This document shows positions 1-40,929 of a DNA stretch of 64,000 nucleotides, one piece after another. Each line of letters begins with the position of its first letter. The stretch's first letter is position 1. A program made the position numbers and the translations under genes. The stretch is from Propionibacteriaceae bacterium (GTDB taxonomy: Bacteria; Actinomycetota; Actinomycetes; Propionibacteriales; Propionibacteriaceae). Where the stretch lies: NCBI GenBank assembly GCA_031261455.1, contig JAISJP010000003.1, positions 4,024-68,023 of the forward strand. The letters are read 5' to 3'. The notes under the pieces were generated by a model. The model did no database searches. It saw nothing but the letters and a program-made list of their open reading frames with translations, and had not been told where the DNA came from.

Positions 1-752
1 TCCTTGGCCAACTGGACAGGCACCGAGTCCCACACGAGGTTCAACTTGGAGATCAACGCAGCGGGTGCGTGTTTGGAGAAGTCGGCACGAAAGTTGTCCA
101 GTAGTTGCTGCTGCAGTTCACGGATGACATCGAATGACTCCCCGTCGCTGTAGTGCTGCACCACTTCAGGCATGCCGCCGACAAACATGTAGGTCTTCAG
201 CAGCTCAAGGAACCTCTGATGCAACGGCACGATCATGTCCAATCTCGAGTCCGCAAGCACTTTGGCGTACTTTGCGTCGCCGGTCGCCGCAAGGAACTCG
301 GTGAAGGACATCGGGAGCATCTTGATCGTCTCGACATTGCCAACCGGGAATGAAGTGCCCCGATGCAGGGCCATACCCATCTGCGAGCCGGCGCAGATGA
401 TGTGCTGCTCGGGCATCTCCTCGCGGAAATACTTGAGGCCGGTCAGCGCGGCAGGCACCTCTTGGATCTCGTCAAAGATGAGTAGCGTCTGACCCGGCGT
501 GATGTGGATGCCGCTCTCAAACTCTATGAGCTCTACAATCCTCTGGGGGCCATATCCGGACGAGAAGATCTTGTGGTAGTCCAGATAGTCTGGGTGATCA
601 AAGTTGATGTAGACGAAGCTCTCGAAATACTCTTTGGCAAGGTGTTTCATTGCCCAAGTCTTGCCGACCTGACGAGCACCATCGATGATCAGCGGCTTGC
701 GACGAGGTTTGGCCTTCCAGGCCAGCAGGTCTTTGAGGATGCTCCTGTCCAC
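1..752 (-). CDS. AAA+ ATPase, AAA_14/DUF4143 family (N-terminal part; 3' end lies beyond window start)
   Basis: Open at window edge so absent from ORF track. Manual minus-strand translation from GTG at 752 gives VDRSILKDLLAWKAKPRRKPLIIDGARQVGKTWAMKHLAKEYF...LLIFDEIQEVP (Walker A GxxxxGKT, Walker B hhhhDE). Same family as 35861..37129. Confidence 0.75.
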   Translation of the reverse strand, partial: MDRSILKDLLAWKAKPRRKPLIIDGARQVGKTWAMKHLAKEYFESFVYINFDHPDYLDYHKIFSSGYGPQRIVELIEFESGIHITPGQTLLIFDEIQEVPAALTGLKYFREEMPEQHIICAGSQMGMALHRGTSFPVGNVETIKMLPMSFTEFLAATGDAKYAKVLADSRLDMIVPLHQRFLELLKTYMFVGGMPEVVQHYSDGESFDVIRELQQQLLDNFRADFSKHAPAALISKLNLVWDSVPVQLAK

Positions 753-1219
753 ATTTTCTCCCTACGTCTTTATGTAGTAATCCACATTTAGTCACGACGT
801 GTTTATGTAGATTGTAACACTTACTGCTGGGCAAAGTGTGTGGGGTAGCTGGCGCGCTCTCTAGCGCGTGCGGACGGTCAGGGTGCCGGCGTTTACGGTG
901 ACGTCGAAGGTTAGCGTGGGGCCGCCGGGGTTGGGGGTCCAGGTGGGAGGACCCGGCCAACTGCCGTAGACGCTCCAGCCTCCACATGAGTCTTGGTGGG
1001 CTTGCGACAGATGGCAGCCAGTCCCGGCTAGCTGCCATAGACGCTCAGGCTCCACCGTTGACCGCTATGTTGAATGGGACATCGCCCTCGGTTATCTGCA
1101 TATTCTCTTGGACTGTATGTGCATATCTACCCATTTGCGGGTAGACTATCTGCATAGTTGACGATGCAGTTTATGCAGATTTGCGAGGTTTGCTAAAGCT
1201 CATCAGACTGACGGGAAGG

Positions 1220-2269
1220 ATGCAGATGCACAGGTTTGACTACTCGTTTTTGCGGGATGCGTTGGTGCCCGCTGGGGTGTTGTCACAGACCAGCGCGATC
1301 AGCGAGCTGCGGGTGCGGCAGTCGGACCGTCTTTCCCGTTACGAGAGCGTGTTTGCAGCGTTGGAGAGCGTTGCCAAAGTAGAGTCCGTCAAGGGATCGA
1401 ACGCGATTGAGGGAATCGTCACGTCAGATCAGCGACTAGAGGCCATCGTCAATCGGGCGTCGGAACCGCTCAACCACGATGAGGCCGAGATTGCCGGATA
1501 CCGTGATGCGTTGGCGGTCATCCATGCGAATGCTGGCACGCTGGACATCTCCGAGACGACGATTCGGGAGCTTCATCGGCTGATCTTCTCCTACACTGCT
1601 GTGAACGGAGGCGAGTACAAGCCGCGCGACAACTATGTGATGGACATTCTGCCTAGTGGGGAGCGCCGCATCCGGTTTACTCCCGTGTCGGCAGCGGACA
1701 CGCCACGGGCGATGCAACAACTCGTGCTCGCCTACTGGGACGCGGCGGCCGACCCGGCAATCTCTCCCCTGTTGCTCATCGGATGCTTCATCGTCGACTT
1801 TCTGTGCATCCACCCGTTTTTGGACGGCAATGGGCGCATGTCGCGGCTCTTGGCGCTGTTACTGCTGTACCGAAACGGCTATGACGCGGGCAAATACATC
1901 GCGCTGGAGCAACAGGTCAACGACGCCAAATGGCTCTACTATGACGCGCTCGGCGAGGCCTCGCTGGACTGGCACGACAATGCCGGTGACTATTTTGCCT
2001 TCGTCAAGTACTTTTTGAGCGTGCTGTTGGCCAGCTACCGCGAGCTTGACGCCCGGTTTGCCGTAGTCAACACCAAGTCGGTGAACAAACGGGGACGCAT
2101 CGAGGCGACGGTGCTCAACTCCTTGACCCCCGTACACAAACGCGACATCGCGCGAATTGTGCCCGATGCCAGCATCACCACCATTGAGGCGGTGCTAGCC
2201 CAGATGGTGCGTCAGGGCGTCATCATCAAGACTGGTGCCGGGCCCGCGACTGCCTACATTCGACCGTAG
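1220..2269 (+). CDS. Fic family protein (putative AMPylase) with N-terminal inhibitory helix
   Basis: ORF 1181..2269, likely start ATG 1220 (MQMHRFDY) or 1226. Fic motif HPFLDGNGRMSR. (S/T)xxxE(G/N) inhibitory motif SNAIEG. C-terminal winged-helix-like tail. Confidence 0.85.
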   Translation: MQMHRFDYSFLRDALVPAGVLSQTSAISELRVRQSDRLSRYESVFAALESVAKVESVKGSNAIEGIVTSDQRLEAIVNRASEPLNHDEAEIAGYRDALAVIHANAGTLDISETTIRELHRLIFSYTAVNGGEYKPRDNYVMDILPSGERRIRFTPVSAADTPRAMQQLVLAYWDAAADPAISPLLLIGCFIVDFLCIHPFLDGNGRMSRLLALLLLYRNGYDAGKYIALEQQVNDAKWLYYDALGEASLDWHDNAGDYFAFVKYFLSVLLASYRELDARFAVVNTKSVNKRGRIEATVLNSLTPVHKRDIARIVPDASITTIEAVLAQMVRQGVIIKTGAGPATAYIRP

Positions 2270-3721: not shown

Positions 3722-4170
3722 ATGCCATGGTCATCTGAAGAATTGGCAGCAGTGCTGAGTGACCTGCGGTGGCGTGGCGGCGACTCAAGTCTGGTTGAGG
3801 CCACAGCGGCCAGGGGTGGTGTACCGCAGTTAGCGGAGACGCTGTGCGCCTTCGGCAATATGCCGTCGGGCGGAGTGATTCTGCTCGGAGTGGATGAGGT
3901 CGCAACTTTGCCATCATTGGCGTTGCGGATGTCGCCCCGCTGGAGGCCGGCGTGGCCGCGCAGGCACGCACTGCTGTGACTCCGCCAGTCCACGTTGAGT
4001 TTGAGGTCGTAGATGCGCCTGAGGGCAGAGTACTTGTGGCGATTGTTGCCGATCTGCCTCTTGCCGACAAGCCATGCCGGACGTGGGCAAGGCATATTTG
4101 CGGCAGGCTGATGGCGACTACGTCATGTCTCCACAAGAGGCGGCCCAGCTAGCTGCAATGCAGGACCGCC
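3722..4170 (+). pseudogene. AlbA_2 / Schlafen-like divergent-AAA DNA-binding protein, frameshifted and truncated
   Basis: Homology-like reading continues across three frames: 3722.. (GGVILLGVDE), 3952.. (TPPVHVEFEVVDAPEGRVLVAIVADLP), 4074.. (GKAYLRQADGDYVMSPQEAAQL). It then runs into the inverted RhuM fragment. Confidence 0.5.
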
Positions 4171-4503
4171 CGCTGAACGAGAGCAAGTCCATGAACGGCT
4201 TGCCCACGTCGGCGCGCGCCTCGATGACTTCGGCTGCGGTATGGCCATGTGCCGCATAATGCAGCTTGTTTTGCACCAGGTTGTTGCAAAATCTGCAACA
4301 ACTGAGTCCCGGCTCAACTCGCCATCCGTGAAGACATTCGAGATGTGACGAGAAATCGTGGACTTGTCTCGCTGGAACAGTTCTGCCAGTTGGTCAAGTG
4401 ACAACCAGACTGTCTCGGCTGAGGTGCGCACATCTATGCGCGTGCGCCCGTCCTCGGTTTGGTAGAGGACGATTTCAGTGGCAGCGGCCTGTTGATCACT
4501 CAC
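4165..4503 (-). pseudogene. RhuM-family virulence-protein-like gene remnant (N-terminal piece fused out of frame to an internal piece)
   Basis: GTG 4503 with GAGAGGAAAG SD. EIVLYQTEDGRTRIDVRTSAETVWLSLDQLAELFQRDKSTISRHISNVF is RhuM-like. Another frame further on reads NLVQNKLHYAAHGHTAAEVIEARADVGKPFM. Most of the ~330-aa family length is missing. Confidence 0.5.
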
Positions 4504-34559: not shown

Positions 34560-35591
34560 CTACGACGCGGAACCATGGATGGGATCGTCGGCGCCGAAGA
34601 GGCGGGTTACCGAGCCGTTGGTGAACACTTCATGAATCGCCTTTGCCAGCAGCGGGGCGATGGACAGCACCGTCATCTTGGGGATGATAACGTCCTCAGG
34701 GATCGGCAGCGTGTTGCAGAAGATGATCTCCTCTAGGCCGCAGGCGTTGATACGCTCCGCCGCCGGATGCGAGAGCACCGGATGCGTGGACGCAGCGATC
34801 ACTCGCTTGGCACCGTGCTTGAGCAGGGCTTGCGCGGCCTGACAGATGGTGCCAGCGGTGTCCACCATGTCGTCCACAAGCACGCAAGTGTGCCCGGCTA
34901 CATCGCCCACAACCTCGTTGACCTGCACCTCGTTTGCCTTCTTCGGGTCGTGGCGCTTGTGGATGATGGCCAGCGGCACCTGCAATCGGTCAGACCACTC
35001 GTCGGCTAGGCGCACCCGTCCGGCATCTGGAGAGACGATGGTCATGTCGTCCGTCCCGTACTTCTCTTCGACGTAGTCAGCGAGCACTGGCAGGCCAGAC
35101 AGGTGGTCTAGAGGGCCGTCGAAGAAGCCTTGGATCTGCGAGGCGTGCAGGTCCACCGAGATGATGCGGTCGGCCCCTGCGGTACGCAGCAGGTCGGCAA
35201 TCAGGCGCGCCGAGATCGGCTCACGTCCCAAATGTTTCTTGTCCTGACGGCCGTACGGGTAGAACGGCACCACCACAGTGATGCGGCGGGCGGAGGCTCG
35301 TTTCAGGGCGTCCACCATGATGAGCAGCTCCATCACCCACTCGTTCACCGGAACTGGTGTGGCCTGGATGACGAAGGCGTCGCAACCGCGCACACTTTCC
35401 TCATAGCGAACGTAGACCTCAGAGTTGGCGTAGGTGATCAGCCGCGACGGAGTGAGATCGATGCCGAGCAGTTCGGCCACTTCGGTGGCCAGTGCAGGAT
35501 ATCCCCGCCCTGATACGACCATTAACTGTTTTATTTCAGGCTGGGACTCAAAGCGTAGCGACACTATTTCTGCGCACTTTCCGGTTGGCAC
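34560..35591 (-). CDS. prs: ribose-phosphate diphosphokinase
   Basis: VVPFYPYGRQDKK, DLHASQIQGFF and VLVDDMVDTAGT motifs. Exact start uncertain. Confidence 0.9.
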   Translation of the reverse strand: MPTGKCAEIVSLRFESQPEIKQLMVVSGRGYPALATEVAELLGIDLTPSRLITYANSEVYVRYEESVRGCDAFVIQATPVPVNEWVMELLIMVDALKRASARRITVVVPFYPYGRQDKKHLGREPISARLIADLLRTAGADRIISVDLHASQIQGFFDGPLDHLSGLPVLADYVEEKYGTDDMTIVSPDAGRVRLADEWSDRLQVPLAIIHKRHDPKKANEVQVNEVVGDVAGHTCVLVDDMVDTAGTICQAAQALLKHGAKRVIAASTHPVLSHPAAERINACGLEEIIFCNTLPIPEDVIIPKMTVLSIAPLLAKAIHEVFTNGSVTRLFGADDPIHGSAS

Positions 35592-35737: not shown

Positions 35738-35852
35738 ATGGTTCACACTGAACGACAGGTGGCGAAACGACGGAAAATGAGGTGTCCAAACGACGGGTTT
35801 TGAGGTGGCGAAACGACGGAAAATGAGGTGTCCAAACGACGGATGGGCTAGT
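35738..35852 (+). repeat. four tandem 23-bp units (two 46-bp doublets) plus a degenerate fifth unit, ending 9 nt before the ATPase ATG
   Basis: ggcgaaacgacggaaaatgaggt / gtccaaacgacgggttttgaggt / ggcgaaacgacggaaaatgaggt / gtccaaacgacggatgggctagt at 35761, 35784, 35807, 35830. Solo copy of ggcgaaacgacgga at 39769..39782. Confidence 0.9.
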
Positions 35853-35860
35853 ATTGTGGC

Positions 35861-37129
35861 ATGTCAAGTTATCTTTCCCGGCTCATAGAACGGCAGTTGA
35901 GCGAACTCCTCTCCGAGTTGCCCGCAATCGCTATTGATGGCGCCAAGGGAGTGGGCAAGACCTCTACGGCGCAGCGGTTCGCCAAGAGCACTTTTCGGCT
36001 AGATGATAATCGAGTCGCCGAGGCGGTACAGGCTCGCCCGGAGGAGCTTCGAGATGCGGCACCACCAGTCTTGTTGGATGAGTGGCAACGCCTCCCTCTG
36101 GTGTGGGACGTGGTGCGTCGTTCAGTAGACGACGACCGCGTGGCAGGCCGTTTCATCCTCACCGGCAGTGCGGTACCGGCACAGACACCAGTACACTCGG
36201 GGGCTGGTCGGATCATTCGACTACGGATGCGACCACTGTCCCTGGCAGAACGATCCCTCGTTGAGCCGACGGTGTCATTGGCTGGTTTGCTGGGCGGGCA
36301 GAGTGAAGTCTCCGGGTCTACAAGCTTCGACTTGCGGGGCTACGTGGATGAAATGCTGCGCTCCGGTTTCCCGGGCCTGCGAGATGGGTCATGGCGAGCA
36401 ATCAGAAACGCGTTGGACAGCTACGTTGACAACATCGTTCAGCGCCAGTTCGCCGAACAAGGCGTTTCGGTGCGCAAACCCGAGACTCTCCGCGCATGGC
36501 TAACTGCGTACGCTGCCGCCACAGGTGGAACCGCGAACTACACCGAGATTCTAGACGCTGCCACGGCAGGACAACCTGACAAACCATCCAAGGATCAGAC
36601 GCTTGTCTATCGAGACGCATTAGCGGACTCTTGGTTAACTGACGAGGTGGCTCCATGGCTTCCCGTCGGTAGTTCACTGCCGACGCTCACGCGGTCGCCT
36701 AAACACTTCTTAGCCGATCCAGCAATCGCGGCACGACTCCTAGACCTCAGCCATGAAAGTCTCTTGAGCGGCGACACCCCCGAACCGCTTGGGCCACAAC
36801 AAAGCACGCTCCTTGGCAGATTCTTTGAGGCACTCGTGGGTCAGAGCCTACAGGTATACGCCGCTGTCAACGAGGCCAAACTCAGTCATCTGCGACTAAA
36901 GGAAGGCAAACGAGAGATTGATTTCGTCATTTCCCGCGGCAGGGACGTTGTCGCGGTCGAGGTCAAGCTCAATCCCACTGTGGACGGTTGGGACGTACGA
37001 CACCTCAACTGGCTCGCAGAGAAGTTCGCCACCTACCACGTCACCAAAATACTCATCACCCCAGGACCCTACGCATACACCCGAAGCGATGGAGTACACG
37101 TTATCCCCGCAGTGTTGCTGGGAGCATAG
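35861..37129 (+). CDS. AAA+ ATPase (AAA_14) with C-terminal DUF4143 / PD-(D/E)xK-like domain
   Basis: Walker A DGAKGVGKTS, Walker B VLLDEWQ. C-terminal EIDFVISRGRDVVAVEVK signature. No SD; TAGTAT 6 nt upstream of the ATG suggests a leaderless mRNA. Confidence 0.8.
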   Translation: MSSYLSRLIERQLSELLSELPAIAIDGAKGVGKTSTAQRFAKSTFRLDDNRVAEAVQARPEELRDAAPPVLLDEWQRLPLVWDVVRRSVDDDRVAGRFILTGSAVPAQTPVHSGAGRIIRLRMRPLSLAERSLVEPTVSLAGLLGGQSEVSGSTSFDLRGYVDEMLRSGFPGLRDGSWRAIRNALDSYVDNIVQRQFAEQGVSVRKPETLRAWLTAYAAATGGTANYTEILDAATAGQPDKPSKDQTLVYRDALADSWLTDEVAPWLPVGSSLPTLTRSPKHFLADPAIAARLLDLSHESLLSGDTPEPLGPQQSTLLGRFFEALVGQSLQVYAAVNEAKLSHLRLKEGKREIDFVISRGRDVVAVEVKLNPTVDGWDVRHLNWLAEKFATYHVTKILITPGPYAYTRSDGVHVIPAVLLGA

Positions 37130-38296
37130 CTACCTATTGCCTTTGGCTCGGTTGTGAGTGACGCACAACATTTGACAGTTGGCTAGGTCGGTCGCACCTC
37201 CATGTGACCAAGCAGTAACGTGGTCTGCCTCCATCTCGTCAGCCTTGTAGATGCGAGTGATGTTTGCGGTGTTGCTTGTGGCACACAACGGACAGTTCGA
37301 CGTGCATTGCCTATTTGCATCTTCAGTTTGGCGCTGGTAGGCCAGCCCCTTGGTCGTGCCATCAAATATGCGAATTGCTAGCAACTCCGGATGCTGTTTG
37401 CCGCCAAGGAGATACTCGTAGATGCCTTTGTGGCTCTTGACTGCCTGATCCCCCATCAGGCGGCGTAGGTCCGATTCCAATTCGGCAGGATCAAACGCGC
37501 AACTGTGGTAGGTCTCATAGAGACGCCCCCACTCCAAACCACGCATCTCCTTGTCTGGAGGTGCGGCGAATACGCTCCCAATCCAGTCAATGACAGACGT
37601 AAAATACGTCTTCAACTCGTTGGTGCTGTCATCCTGACGGTGAAGCGCCATGTAAGCATCAATCGACGTGCCGTGTGCCCCAGCGAGCCACCCTAGCGCG
37701 ACCTCCAACACCTGCTGCCGTTTCGCGTCCCCGTTGATGTAAGCAGACCACTTTTGCAGATTCGCGTTGTGGGAGTTAGAGAACTCGGCCTTCGCCAGCG
37801 TAACGAAAGGCCCTGAGTAGATCGCGTTTAACAGCTCCTGATTGTTCAGTGGCACCCCGGCAATATTGATGGTCTTGAACCACTCCTTAATCTCCTTCTC
37901 CGTACCTGAGCATTCATAGACGAGCAGTTCGCTATCTAGGATCATGGCCTGTTCCTCAAGCGGTAGCGACGAAAATGTCTGTTCCCTGTCATCCACGCGG
38001 ATCGCAAACTTGCCGGTAACAAACCTGCCCACGGACGTAATACGCTGTTGCCCATCCAGCACCTCAAGACAAGAGCCGGCATCATTGAAGTAGATCAGTC
38101 CCAGCGGATAGCCCTTCAACAACGAATCAATGACAGCCACATCCTTCTTGCCATCGTTGTAGATGTAGTTGCGTTGGTACTCCGGTTGAATGACAAGCTT
38201 GCCAGAAAGGCCGTAAAGCCCCTTGCTCTCAAACTCGTTGTAAAAGAACCCCGCCACAACCTCACGTACCGTGTAATGCTTCAGTTCAGTCTTCAC
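37130..38296 (-). CDS. DUF262 (ParB-like/GmrS-like) domain protein fused to a zinc-finger HNH nuclease
   Basis: IQPEYQRNY and [12 protein letters not shown]262 motifs. C-terminal CPLC...[33 protein letters not shown] start overlaps the methylase stop by 11 nt. Confidence 0.8.
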
Positions 38297-39407
38297 TGGT
38301 TACCTTCCGCTGGATGAAGATTCGCTTGTACGCTCGAATGCCCCGCACCAGTGGTTGCGCGACTTGACTGTCGGAATCCCACAGGCCGTTGGCAAATCCC
38401 TTTCCTTCGGACTCGGTTGCGCCGACAATCTCGAATTGTCCGGGATTGTACTTGTCAAGAAATGTGATGGGAACTCCCATCGTCCCATCATGATCGTCCG
38501 GGATGGCGTCAACAAATGGAACTTCAATAGCGTCGTAATTGTCGTAGCACACGTACCCAATTCCACGTACCTCTTTGTGCTTGCTGAATCTAATATTGTC
38601 CTCCATTGTCATCAGTTGCAGCGGTTCGTGACGACGGCCATGCTCAATGTTGGTGTACCAACACGAGTTTCCCAGCCGGGTGTAGTCATGCTTGTCGTCA
38701 CTGGGGTACCCGAGTCTGGCTGCTTTTCCTCGATCGCTGTCTGCAATGAGTGTGCCTTTGGGGACTCCGAATACCATATCCGTTGTGTTCCCGGTGGCGC
38801 CCTTCCACAACAAGTTCTCTCTAATTAGAGGGAAGACTTCTTTGTAAGTCACAGCGTTGCTATTGCCAATGGCGGCAAACTGCTTATCACCCTGTACGAG
38901 CCATGCGATAAACTCACGGAAAAGACTAAATGGCGGATTCGTGATGACGATATCAGCCTCGTCTCGGAGTCCGGTAACTTCGGCGCTCCGGAAATCGCCG
39001 TCGCCGTCCAAGTATCTCCACTGGAAGTCATCAATGTCAATGGCTCCATCGGCGCTGATATCCTTCGACTCCAACACAAAGAGCTTGCCTTTTGTGCGGT
39101 CTTTGCTCTTATCAAACTGGGGATCAGCAGACCGCGTCGGCATGTAGAAGGTGCTGTGGTTGCTATTGGGCGCGTAACTGGTGGAGATTAGCTTTCTAAG
39201 TCCAAAATCAACGAAATGAAGTGCGAAAAACTTGGTGAAATTGCTCCACTCCGGATCATCACACGGCAGCAGAATCACCTTGCCGCGAAAGACATCTGGG
39301 TCATACTCAAGATAGGCGTTCATCTCCCGCTCGATGTCGGCCCACTGCGTGTAAAACTCGTCGTTCTTGGCCTTGGCCGCGCGCCCAAGCGCGTCGTTGC
39401 CCGCCAT
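38286..39407 (-). CDS. EcoRI-family adenine-specific DNA methyltransferase
   Basis: N-terminal NDEFYTQ motif and ITNPPFSLF (NPPF) catalytic motif. GGGAG SD 7 nt upstream of the ATG. Confidence 0.8.
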
Positions 39408-39487
39408 CAGTGGACTCCCGCACCAATGCGAGAAAGATAGCTCCCCCAGGCCTGAAGCCTAGGCCGTCGCTCTAAACTAGGAGAGAG

Positions 39488-39567
39488 GCCTGCTGCCTGC
39501 TGCCTGCTGCCTGCTGCCTGCTGCCTGCTGCCTGCTGCCTGCTGCCTGCTGCCTGCTGCCTGCTGCC
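39488..39567 (-). repeat. perfect heptanucleotide tandem repeat, GCCTGCT x11 plus 3 nt (AGCAGGC on the methylase strand)
   Basis: Counted unit by unit from 39488 to 39564, with partial gcc at 39565..39567. Lies 81-160 nt upstream of the methylase ATG. Confidence 0.95.
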
Positions 39568-39822
39568 ATAATGATGTATCCCTTGTTGATAATCAGGTGT
39601 TCACCCGTGGTACACAGCCTAACGGGAGTGTTTCACAAACCCAACGCCAACTCGCCATCAACGAAGAACACGGTTGCCAACCTCAACAACAAGAGGACAA
39701 TGGAGCTCCACTCAACAAGAGCATCTACACTCGAGTGGCTTCAGTGCCTTGAGACAGCACACAGAGATGGCGAAACGACGGATTTGGCGTCTCTTACCTA
39801 GCCGTGGGCGATTTCCCCTGTG

Positions 39823-40929
39823 TTACGCGGTTGCGGGTTCGCGACGCTCGCCCGCGGCGATTTGGGTGCCGGGTTTCAGGTATAGGAACGGGCCGACCCG
39901 CGAACCCTCACCGATTACGGCCAGTTCGGCGTGGACGCGGATTACGCGGGCGTTGGCACCGACTTCGCAGTCTTTCAGGGTGGTGCTGGGGCCGATGGTG
40001 GCGCCCGATTCGATGCTGGTGACGCCGTGGAGTTCGACGCCAGGCAGCAGGGTGACGTCTTGACCCAGGTCCACGTCGGCGTCAATCCACGTGGCGGCGG
40101 GGTCGATGACGGTGACGCCGGCGAGCATCCAGCGCGTGACAATTCTGCGGTTGTACTCGGCAGTTAGCGCGGCCAACTGAACGCGGTCGTTGACGCCTTC
40201 GGTCTGCCAAACGTCGGCGGTGACTACCGCACCTACCCGTCCGGAGGCCTCACGAGCAAGGGCGATAGCGTCGGTCAGGTAGAGCTGACCTTGGTCGTTG
40301 TTGGTGGTCAACTGACCTAATGAACTGCGCAGTGTGGGGATGTCGAAGACGTAGACCCCGGCGTTGATCTCGGTGATTTGCAGCTCGTCTGGGGTAGCAT
40401 CACGATGTTCGACGATGCGGGCCACCTGCGCAGGGTCGGCAGCGTCACGAACAACACGGCCATAGCCGGAGGGGTTGTCGGCGTGAGCACTCAGCAGGGT
40501 TGCGGCATTGGCGTAGTCGCGATGAGCAGCCACCAACTCTTCGAGAGTTTCAGGCTCAAGTAGGGGGACATCGGCATAGGTGACAGCGACCTCGCCGGTC
40601 AGGTCGGACGGCAGGGCAGCAAGCGCGGTGCGGACGGCGTCGCCGGTGCCCAACAACTCCTGTTGGACGACGGTCTGGGCGTAGGGCGCTATGCGCGACA
40701 GCTCGGTCAGCACCGACTCGCGTTCATGCCCGACCACAACCACTAGGTGTTCGGGGCGTAGCGGCTCCACGGCGTTGATCGCGTGTGCCAGCAACGTCTT
40801 GCCGCCGATGGTGTGCAACAACTTGGACTTGGCGGACTTCATGCGCGTGCCCGCGCCAGCGGCCAAAACTATGACTGCAGCAACCCTATCGCTCATACTT
40901 CCAATTCTAGTCGGATATGGGCCGCTCAT
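39823..40929 (-). CDS. glmU: GlmU (UDP-GlcNAc diphosphorylase / GlcN-1-P acetyltransferase), apparently 3'-truncated within the LbH acetyltransferase domain
   Basis: LAAGAGTRMKS uridyltransferase N-terminus. Hexapeptide repeats run to GPFLYLKPGTQIAAGE, then 7 unrelated residues and a stop. About 100+ C-terminal residues expected from the E. coli and Mtb proteins are absent. Confidence 0.75.
   Translation of the reverse strand: MSGPYPTRIGSMSDRVAAVIVLAAGAGTRMKSAKSKLLHTIGGKTLLAHAINAVEPLRPEHLVVVVGHERESVLTELSRIAPYAQTVVQQELLGTGDAVRTALAALPSDLTGEVAVTYADVPLLEPETLEELVAAHRDYANAATLLSAHADNPSGYGRVVRDAADPAQVARIVEHRDATPDELQITEINAGVYVFDIPTLRSSLGQLTTNNDQGQLYLTDAIALAREASGRVGAVVTADVWQTEGVNDRVQLAALTAEYNRRIVTRWMLAGVTVIDPAATWIDADVDLGQDVTLLPGVELHGVTSIESGATIGPSTTLKDCEVGANARVIRVHAELAVIGEGSRVGPFLYLKPGTQIAAGERREPATA

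Follow-up and report, generated by a model that had tools for sequence, protein, structure and literature searches.

A putative Type II-style methylase–nuclease operon and a separate ATPase gene in an insert between glmU and prs of a Propionibacteriaceae bacterium

An insert of 4.2 kb separates glmU from prs in a 64,000-nt stretch of DNA from a Propionibacteriaceae bacterium (metagenome-assembled genome, GenBank assembly GCA_031261455.1, contig JAISJP010000003.1, positions 4,024 to 68,023 of the forward strand), referred to hereafter as the window, and carries three genes, here called a, b, and c. Our analysis indicates that this insert is probably a small, horizontally acquired defence islet made of two independent units, namely, a Type II-style restriction-modification (R-M) operon, formed by the methylase gene b and the nuclease gene c, and gene a, which encodes an ATPase. 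As judged from sequence comparisons, the b-c pair is an ordinary, widely distributed, and database-catalogued Type II-style R-M pair and not a part of a new three-gene system. The genes of the locus, numbered from the first nucleotide of the window and taken from a list of open reading frames (ORFs), are as follows.

34560..35591, minus strand: prs, ribose-phosphate pyrophosphokinase (ORF list; Pfam Pribosyltran_N, Pribosyl_synth, and Pribosyltran)
35861..37129, plus strand: gene a, AAA_14 P-loop ATPase with a DUF4143 (PD-(D/E)xK-like) domain (ORF list; Pfam; PADLOC)
37130..38296, minus strand: gene c, DUF262 and zinc-finger HNH nuclease, with a GTG start (ORF list; Pfam; PADLOC)
38286..39407, minus strand: gene b, EcoRI-family N6-adenine DNA methyltransferase (ORF list; Pfam; PADLOC)
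39823..40929, minus strand: glmU, short 368-residue form (ORF list; NCBIfam)

A preliminary description of this DNA had proposed that an insert of about 4.2 kb carrying three ORFs splits two normally adjacent genes. The coordinates, strands, and domains of these ORFs were reproduced by the ORF list and Pfam, and the gap between glmU and prs measured 4,231 nt. The comparison with uninterrupted junctions that had been suggested as a check gave relatives devoid of the insert, in which the two genes are only 25 nt apart (L005) or overlap by 4 nt (L007 and L008); in two others (L004 and L006), the conserved coding part of prs begins approximately 120–170 nt past glmU. Since glmU and prs abut or overlap in these relatives, the insertion is real, and the 4.2-kb insert was acquired horizontally and has no counterpart in them. 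The closest genomes in the species collection were Propionibacteriaceae metagenome-assembled genomes, with a GlmU identity of 64–65%, and the similarity of prs to these relatives starts near position 35541. In agreement with the earlier account, no integrase or transposase was detected in the insert, nor among the ten large ORFs located within approximately 10 kb.

Domains, pairing, and spread of the methylase and nuclease genes

Evidence for an R-M operon came from the conservation of the b-c pair. We collected 87 loci carrying a homologue of c and counted the pairing in the 63 that had at least 1.3 kb of upstream sequence. An EcoRI-family methylase gene was found directly upstream of the nuclease gene, on the same strand, in 62 of these 63 loci. 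In the sole exception (L043), an IS110-family transposase (376..1311, Pfam) occupies the place of the methylase, the 3' end of which is still present, and this nuclease may have been left without its methylase. The methylase stop codon overlaps the nuclease start codon by 4 nt (ATGA) in 50 of the 54 distinct loci; in the window, the overlap exists as an 11-nt variant, noticed in the preliminary description and confirmed here as GTGAAGACTGA at 38286..38296, which comprises the stop of b and the GTG start of c. One relative (P0286, 688 residues) was even called as a single protein combining EcoRI_methylase, GmrSD_N, and HNH.

Gryllotalpicola and a contig deposited as Burkholderia sp. RS01 both contain the pair, which also resides on plasmids of Pseudarthrobacter, Rhodococcus, Gordonia, Arthrobacter, Dietzia, and Microbacterium, on those of Enterococcus faecium and Pediococcus, and in the Flavobacterium phage laban6-1. 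The expectation that b and c would prove to be conserved neighbours in unrelated genomes was thus borne out across several phyla, on plasmids and chromosomes as well as in a phage. Homologues of c, detected through a nuclease match alone, were also found at 55–61% identity on plasmids of Leuconostoc, Apilactobacillus, Phocaeicola, and Moraxella. Close homologues of c number more than 8,000; among the 120 matches listed, nearly all were 388–389 residues long, a few had 393 residues, and identity was at least 70%, while 385 clusters of homologues were obtained at E ≤ 1e-30 in a library clustered at 50% identity. Elsewhere, the pair neighbours integrases, a relaxase, and other defence genes. In one metagenomic island (L109, 2925..7167; ENA ERZ27272730 k141_1901319), which has an integrase fragment near the pair, the pair (nuclease 78% identical to c) comes right after a canonical GmrSD of 590 residues (GmrSD_N and GmrSD_C). 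This distribution bears what we take to be the signature of a mobile methylase-then-nuclease R-M module.

As a separate observation, two DUF262 nucleases of presumably opposite logic stand side by side in the L109 island.

The product of b matched the Pfam EcoRI_methylase profile at positions 2–345 of 345 (2.5e-114) and the PADLOC MTase_II profile PDLC03297 end to end (3.7e-86), and its translation contains an NPPF motif conforming to the catalytic (D/N)PP(Y/F) signature of methyltransferases. It shares 37.5% identity, over 98% of its length, with the methylase adjoining a "type-2 restriction enzyme EcoRI" on the Escherichia coli plasmid pU90-3. A GGGAG Shine-Dalgarno-like sequence is located 7 nt upstream of the ATG of b. 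A sequence search among solved structures gave b a chance-level match only, and the annotated loci that were inspected showed no gene for a controller protein ahead of the methylase.

Many Lactococcus plasmids (e.g., NC_008505.1, 28371..28526) carry an unannotated remnant of 52 residues, 69% identical to residues 27–78 of b, and these remnants appear to be decayed fragments of EcoRI-family methylases.

The product of c, 388 residues long, matched GmrSD_N/DUF262 (4.5e-21) and HNH (PF01844, 4.5e-08) in Pfam, as well as the PADLOC REase_II profile PDLC03418 at 6e-90 (residues 9–387 against profile positions 9–371 of 372). No match to DUF1524/GmrSD_C (PF07510) was obtained, the C-terminus consisting of the PF01844 HNH. 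The absence of conserved catalytic residues from c had been named beforehand as an observation that would speak against the proposed module, and these residues were in fact kept across 28 homologues. E39, Q41, R42, and D81-G82-Q83-R85 were invariant, as were the HNH/zinc residues C335/C338/C378, D358-H359, N373, and H381-N382, and Q84 and C374 were nearly so. The VLDGQQRIT motif of c is identical in BrxU (aligned to 7P9K), which was the only sequence-level relative with a solved structure; a general sequence search of solved structures gave no match for c. An AlphaFold model of c of moderate quality (pLDDT 72.7, pTM 0.43), when submitted to Foldseek, returned weak matches to ParB CTPase domains, BrxU, sulfiredoxin, and an HNH nickase, none of them at E ≤ 0.001.

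GmrSD and BrxU are nucleotide-stimulated nucleases in which the DUF262 domain forms a nucleotide-binding fold (PMC4619093, PMC12707154). By analogy with these enzymes, we infer that the HNH domain of c may do the cutting and its DUF262 domain may bind DNA or a nucleotide; this ParB/Srx-like domain, which keeps DGQQR, would probably bind DNA and use a nucleotide to license cleavage. In the operon as we picture it, b would be translated first and would put an N6-methyl group on adenines within a specific sequence of the host DNA, c would be translationally coupled to b through the overlapping stop and start codons, and c would cut DNA devoid of the b mark by means of its zinc-finger HNH active site. 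Given its tie to a methylase, c should follow the classical logic, in which methylation protects the DNA.

The repeat in the methylase leader

The region preceding b contains a perfect heptanucleotide repeat, the sole repeat of its kind in the window, located approximately 80 nt upstream of the methylase ATG.

39488..39567, minus strand: perfect heptanucleotide repeat, (GGCAGCA)x11 on the coding strand (TRF, period 7, 11.4 copies, 100% matches)
39478..39570, minus strand: possible 30-codon upstream ORF (MAAGSRQQ...RPLS, then stop), predicted from three-frame translation only and starting at the first repeat unit

This upstream ORF begins with an ATG at 39570, runs through the repeat and, with the present number of units, terminates 70 nt short of the methylase start. 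Were the repeat read through in another frame, translation would terminate at a TGA that overlaps the methylase ATG (TGATG, 39405..39409). Slippage within the 11-copy heptamer may turn expression of the operon on and off, and the layout of the leader suggests phase variation through translational coupling of the upstream frame to the methylase. The sole other assembly of the locus (L001) ends inside the heptamer repeat and is thus uninformative as to its copy number.

Repeats of this type recurred in the family: 613 kb of loci together with the 64-kb window yielded only four simple-sequence repeats, three of which belong to this R-M operon (the window, L063, and L102). In L063 (metagenome Ga0075012_10036487), (AGCA)x20 is present at 1026..1105, 49 nt upstream of the methylase ATG, and an ATG-started upstream ORF running through the repeat terminates at a TGA that overlaps the methylase ATG (TGATG), as would one frame of the leader in the window; L063 is thus currently in the overlapping frame. 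In L102 (IMG/VR UViG_2875199372_000002), (CA)x21 lies at 4107..4148, inside the 3' part of the methylase gene itself. Downstream of it, two alternative copies of the conserved methylase C-terminal motif are encoded in two frames, ending at 4314 and 4381, the latter leaving 1 nt to the nuclease ATG at 4383; by slippage, the methylase might change from one C-terminus to the other and, hence, in its coupling to the nuclease.

Phase-variable R-M driven by simple-sequence repeats is known from the Type III mod and Type I hsd genes of Haemophilus, Neisseria, Helicobacter, and Mycoplasma. The feature typical of such systems, a long perfect repeat in the promoter, leader, or 5' coding region of the methylase gene, is found here as (GGCAGCA)x11, so that, as in the Type I and Type III systems, the 5' end of the gene has a long and perfect run of short units; similar repeats recur in the family. 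In contrast to them, the repeat is situated in the leader or upstream ORF and not in the methylase reading frame (L102, with its repeat within the methylase gene, being the exception), and a Type II-like system in an actinobacterial host is concerned. The folding of the leader RNA was no better than that of shuffled sequence (z-scores of +0.5 and +1.2), and no convincing promoter was seen in the leader in a scan that covered sigma-70 consensus sites only.

Alternatively, the module could be silent or decaying in this bacterium, either switched off via the leader repeat or otherwise unexpressed, with no current restriction. The position of the upstream stop codon, ahead of the methylase start instead of overlapping it, and the lack of a promoter-like site in the leader are consistent with such silence. 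However, the b and c ORFs are intact and full length and contain all the invariant residues, the methylase has its own Shine-Dalgarno-like sequence, and the promoter scan was limited to one class of sites. We consider a silent module unlikely.

Relationship to known restriction systems

The preliminary description had matched these genes to no named defence system, and this claim did not hold: the PADLOC Type II profiles REase_II and MTase_II matched c and b, respectively, and the candidate PDC-S01 matched a. The accompanying proposal of an R-M-type module in an acquired insert was, on the other hand, supported by the full-length PADLOC Type II matches and by the conserved b-c operon. As in the Type II R-M systems of PADLOC, the two genes lie next to each other as separate units in the same orientation, the methylase coming first and its stop overlapping the nuclease start; the locus thus combines a separate methylase, an adjacent nuclease with an intact catalytic motif, and a conserved partnership, as in Type II R-M. 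Classical Type II enzymes lack a DUF262 domain of the nucleoside triphosphate (NTP)-binding type, whereas c carries one, which raises the possibility of an NTP requirement.

The relationship to the EcoRI system is limited to the methylase. The product of b belongs to the same family as the methylase located beside R.EcoRI, but the nucleases are unrelated, R.EcoRI being a PD-(D/E)xK enzyme and c a DUF262-HNH protein, and the EcoRI order is nuclease-then-methylase, whereas it is methylase-then-nuclease here. The arrangement of EcoRI R-M proper, an R.EcoRI-type nuclease beside M.EcoRI with GAATTC as the site, was not found, and, given a methylase identity of 37%, the GAATTC specificity is not transferable to b.

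With GmrSD, BrxU, and SspE, c has in common its N-terminal ParB/Srx-like DUF262 domain, a His-Me finger C-terminus, and a defence-island setting. These likenesses could mean that c is a Type IV modification-dependent nuclease, similar to GmrSD or BrxU and directed against modified phage DNA, with b as a separate gene, e.g., an orphan methylase or a shielding marker. DUF262 with DGQQR is shared by c, GmrSD, and BrxU, ParB domains and BrxU were the best fold matches of c, and characterised DUF262 nucleases sense modified DNA (PMC4619093, PMC12065111). However, c terminates in a short zinc-finger PF01844 HNH in place of the DUF1524/GmrSD_C of those enzymes, and it has 388 residues compared with approximately 590 for the GmrSD adjoining the pair in L109, where a separate and complete GmrSD stands next to the pair. 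Moreover, Type IV enzymes are stand-alone, whereas c is codon-overlapped with a methylase gene in nearly all loci and fused to it once, and the PADLOC profile matched by c is a Type II and not a Type IV one. Lacking DUF1524 and not being encoded by a stand-alone gene, c thus departs from GmrSD-type Type IV enzymes in two of their defining features, though it has DUF262 with DGQQR. Its partnership with a methylase implies the opposite logic, in which methylation protects rather than triggers, and a Type IV function of c appears very unlikely to us. A likeness to Menshen (NsnABC) was only partial: c matched NsnA over its DUF262 part only (residues 32–206, 1.7e-25), and the insert has no gene for NsnB (the ABC ATPase) or NsnC (the effector), the partners of NsnA in that system.

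Several 6-bp palindromes were strongly depleted in the window, namely, CGATCG (5 observed for 27.5 expected), CAGCTG (2 for 15.9), CTCGAG (3 for 16.2), GTCGAC (10 for 32.1), and TTCGAA (1 for 9.1), which may be a trace of R-M pressure, past or present, exerted by several systems. TTCGAA was the most depleted 6-mer in 92 R-M-bearing loci taken together with the window (94 observed versus 204 expected), and control loci without the system gave the same ratio (9 observed versus 20.8 expected).

Returning to the interpretation of the insert as an acquired islet with a Type II-style b-c operon, five points weigh against it or against parts of it. The characterised DUF262 nucleases (GmrSD, BrxU, and SspE) are modification-dependent or modification-sensing, i.e., of the opposite logic (PMC4619093, PMC12707154). 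No described enzyme of this DUF262-HNH plus EcoRI-family methylase family came up in the searchable literature, and protection by methylation and sequence-specific cleavage are thereby assumed. The palindrome depletion was not specific and singled out no recognition site. Since neither a special leader structure nor a promoter was detected, the idea of phase variation draws on anatomy alone. Lastly, the relatives, at 64–65% GlmU identity, are too diverged outside the coding sequence for the empty site and the exact borders of the insert to be aligned.

A bolder proposal, which we put forward tentatively and hold to be possible rather than probable, is that c represents an uncharacterised mechanistic type of restriction enzyme, a nucleotide-gated, GmrSD-like ParB/Srx-HNH nuclease of inverted logic that would be blocked by the N6-methyladenine of its partner and not triggered by modification, in an operon that in some hosts, this one among them, would be phase-variable via repeats altering either the coupling of an upstream frame to the methylase (the window and L063) or the choice of the methylase C-terminus that is coupled to the nuclease (L102).

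Gene a, the insert borders, and significance of the locus

Gene a is convergent with gene c, with a gap of 0 nt; the stop-to-stop junction reported earlier (TAG followed by CTA, 37127..37132) was confirmed. Its product matched AAA_14 (1.7e-12) and DUF4143 (3.1e-22) in Pfam and, over its full length (residues 1–419, 2.7e-67), the PADLOC profile PDLC04790, i.e., the candidate PDC-S01. Among 15 homologues, V31-G32-K33 of Walker A were invariant and T34 nearly so, D73-E74-W75-Q76 of Walker B were conserved, and, in the PD-(D/E)xK-like part, E352, D354, and K369 were conserved and E367 was nearly invariant. According to its description, PDC-S01 is a single-gene candidate of very common occurrence, in which an ATPase is fused to PD-(D/E)xK, and it lacks experimental validation (PMC12988326). 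Gene a has the AAA_14 and DUF4143 architecture described for PDC-S01 and matches its profile end to end; PDC-S01 being a computational candidate, a defence role of a is putative (PMC12988326).

No homologue of a was found beside c in any of the 87 loci, so the inclusion of a in the module, as first proposed, had to be abandoned: a is a separate neighbour and not a component. Its nearest homologues, 59–60% identical, occur in unrelated contexts, and, since a converges on c, there is no shared transcript. As far as its domains and profile match indicate, a would be a stand-alone PDC-S01 candidate that simply adjoins the b-c pair. That all three genes form one non-canonical defence system, in which a works with the methylase and the DUF262-HNH nuclease, is most improbable even though a and c have no intergenic space between them, low GC3 (GC content at third codon positions) is common to the three genes, direct repeats flank them together, and a contig of an independent Logan assembly contains these three genes and no others, because, in the loci collected, b is almost always beside c and a is so in none of the 87, the closest relatives of a live in unrelated neighbourhoods, PADLOC treats its family as a single-gene candidate (PMC12988326), and the two transcription units converge.

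The insert is bordered by short direct repeats.

35756..35843, unstranded: left border repeat, four tandem copies, with a 23-nt period, of the 19-nt motif GAGGTGGCGAAACGACGGA (TRF, repeat search, and pattern search with shuffles)
39568..39763, unstranded: low-GC non-coding spacer between the leader repeat and the right border repeat
39764..39782, unstranded: right border repeat, a fifth copy of the 19-nt motif, 18/19 identical (repeat search; 40 nt from the glmU stop)

The 19-nt direct repeats thus flank all three genes together. A 14-mer shared by the left and right copies, GGCGAAACGACGGA, occurs exactly three times in the window, always at the insert borders; five matches were found when up to two mismatches were allowed, a number reached in 0 of 100 shuffles, and the motif was absent from the 11 loci searched. 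The repeats fit an insertion with target duplication or recombination at short repeats, and it was probably through recombination, with these flanking 19-nt repeats taking part, that the block came into the glmU-prs spacer. The four 23-nt units of the left array have cores that alternate between GGTGGCGAAACGACGG and GGTGTCCAAACGACGG and end 18 nt before the ATG of a. The array looks like an iteron or operator array, for which regulation of a or an insertion scar are possible roles. The spacers gave no Rfam match, and their small ORFs, including one of 76 residues in 39568..39763, had no Pfam match.

Composition had been invoked in the preliminary description, with about 50% GC for b, c, and the spacer and more than 60% for the flanks and gene a, to suggest a composite insert. 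The total GC content was indeed 52.3% for b, 53.1% for c, 51.0% for the spacer (39568..39822), and 61–64% for the flanking genes, but that of gene a was 58.4% and therefore below the value given. This higher total GC of a is due to codon positions 1 and 2. GC3 was alike in the three genes (0.61 for a, 0.62 for b, and 0.66 for c) compared with 0.73–0.77 for glmU, prs, ctc, and ackA; since a is as atypical as b and c, composition gives no support to a composite origin, which had been based on total GC, and the repeats enclose the three genes as one block.

The neighbouring glmU is short: it matches positions 4–347 of 488 of the NCBIfam GlmU model and lacks approximately 125 C-terminal residues of the acetyltransferase (left-handed beta-helix) domain, no separate piece for which was found anywhere in the window. 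Truncation by the insert was ruled out, as short glmU genes (355–363 residues) directly precede prs in L004 (3444..4511) and L005 (7986..9077). The truncation is thus older than the insert. The glmU of L006 (1681..2727) matches the same N-terminal part only, and glmU is full length in the more distant relatives L007 and L008. This clade may have lost the acetyltransferase function of GlmU or may have it supplied from elsewhere.

For annotation, b and c are best labelled as a Type II R-M pair and a, separately, as a PDC-S01 candidate. The locus would provide a case of a mobile R-M unit landing between the core genes glmU and prs, which are normally adjacent. The pair is very widespread, as judged from the number of close homologues of c (more than 8,000), yet we found no biochemical description of it in the literature. 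If our interpretation is true, a restriction enzyme with a ParB-like nucleotide-binding domain links classical R-M to the GmrSD/BrxU group. In addition, the recurrence of repeats gives a hint that a Type II-like system might be switched on and off, something unusual, if so, among Actinobacteria. The remaining interest of this family, thus, lies in the mechanism of its ParB-like/HNH nuclease, in its recognition site, and in a possible repeat-driven switching of its expression.

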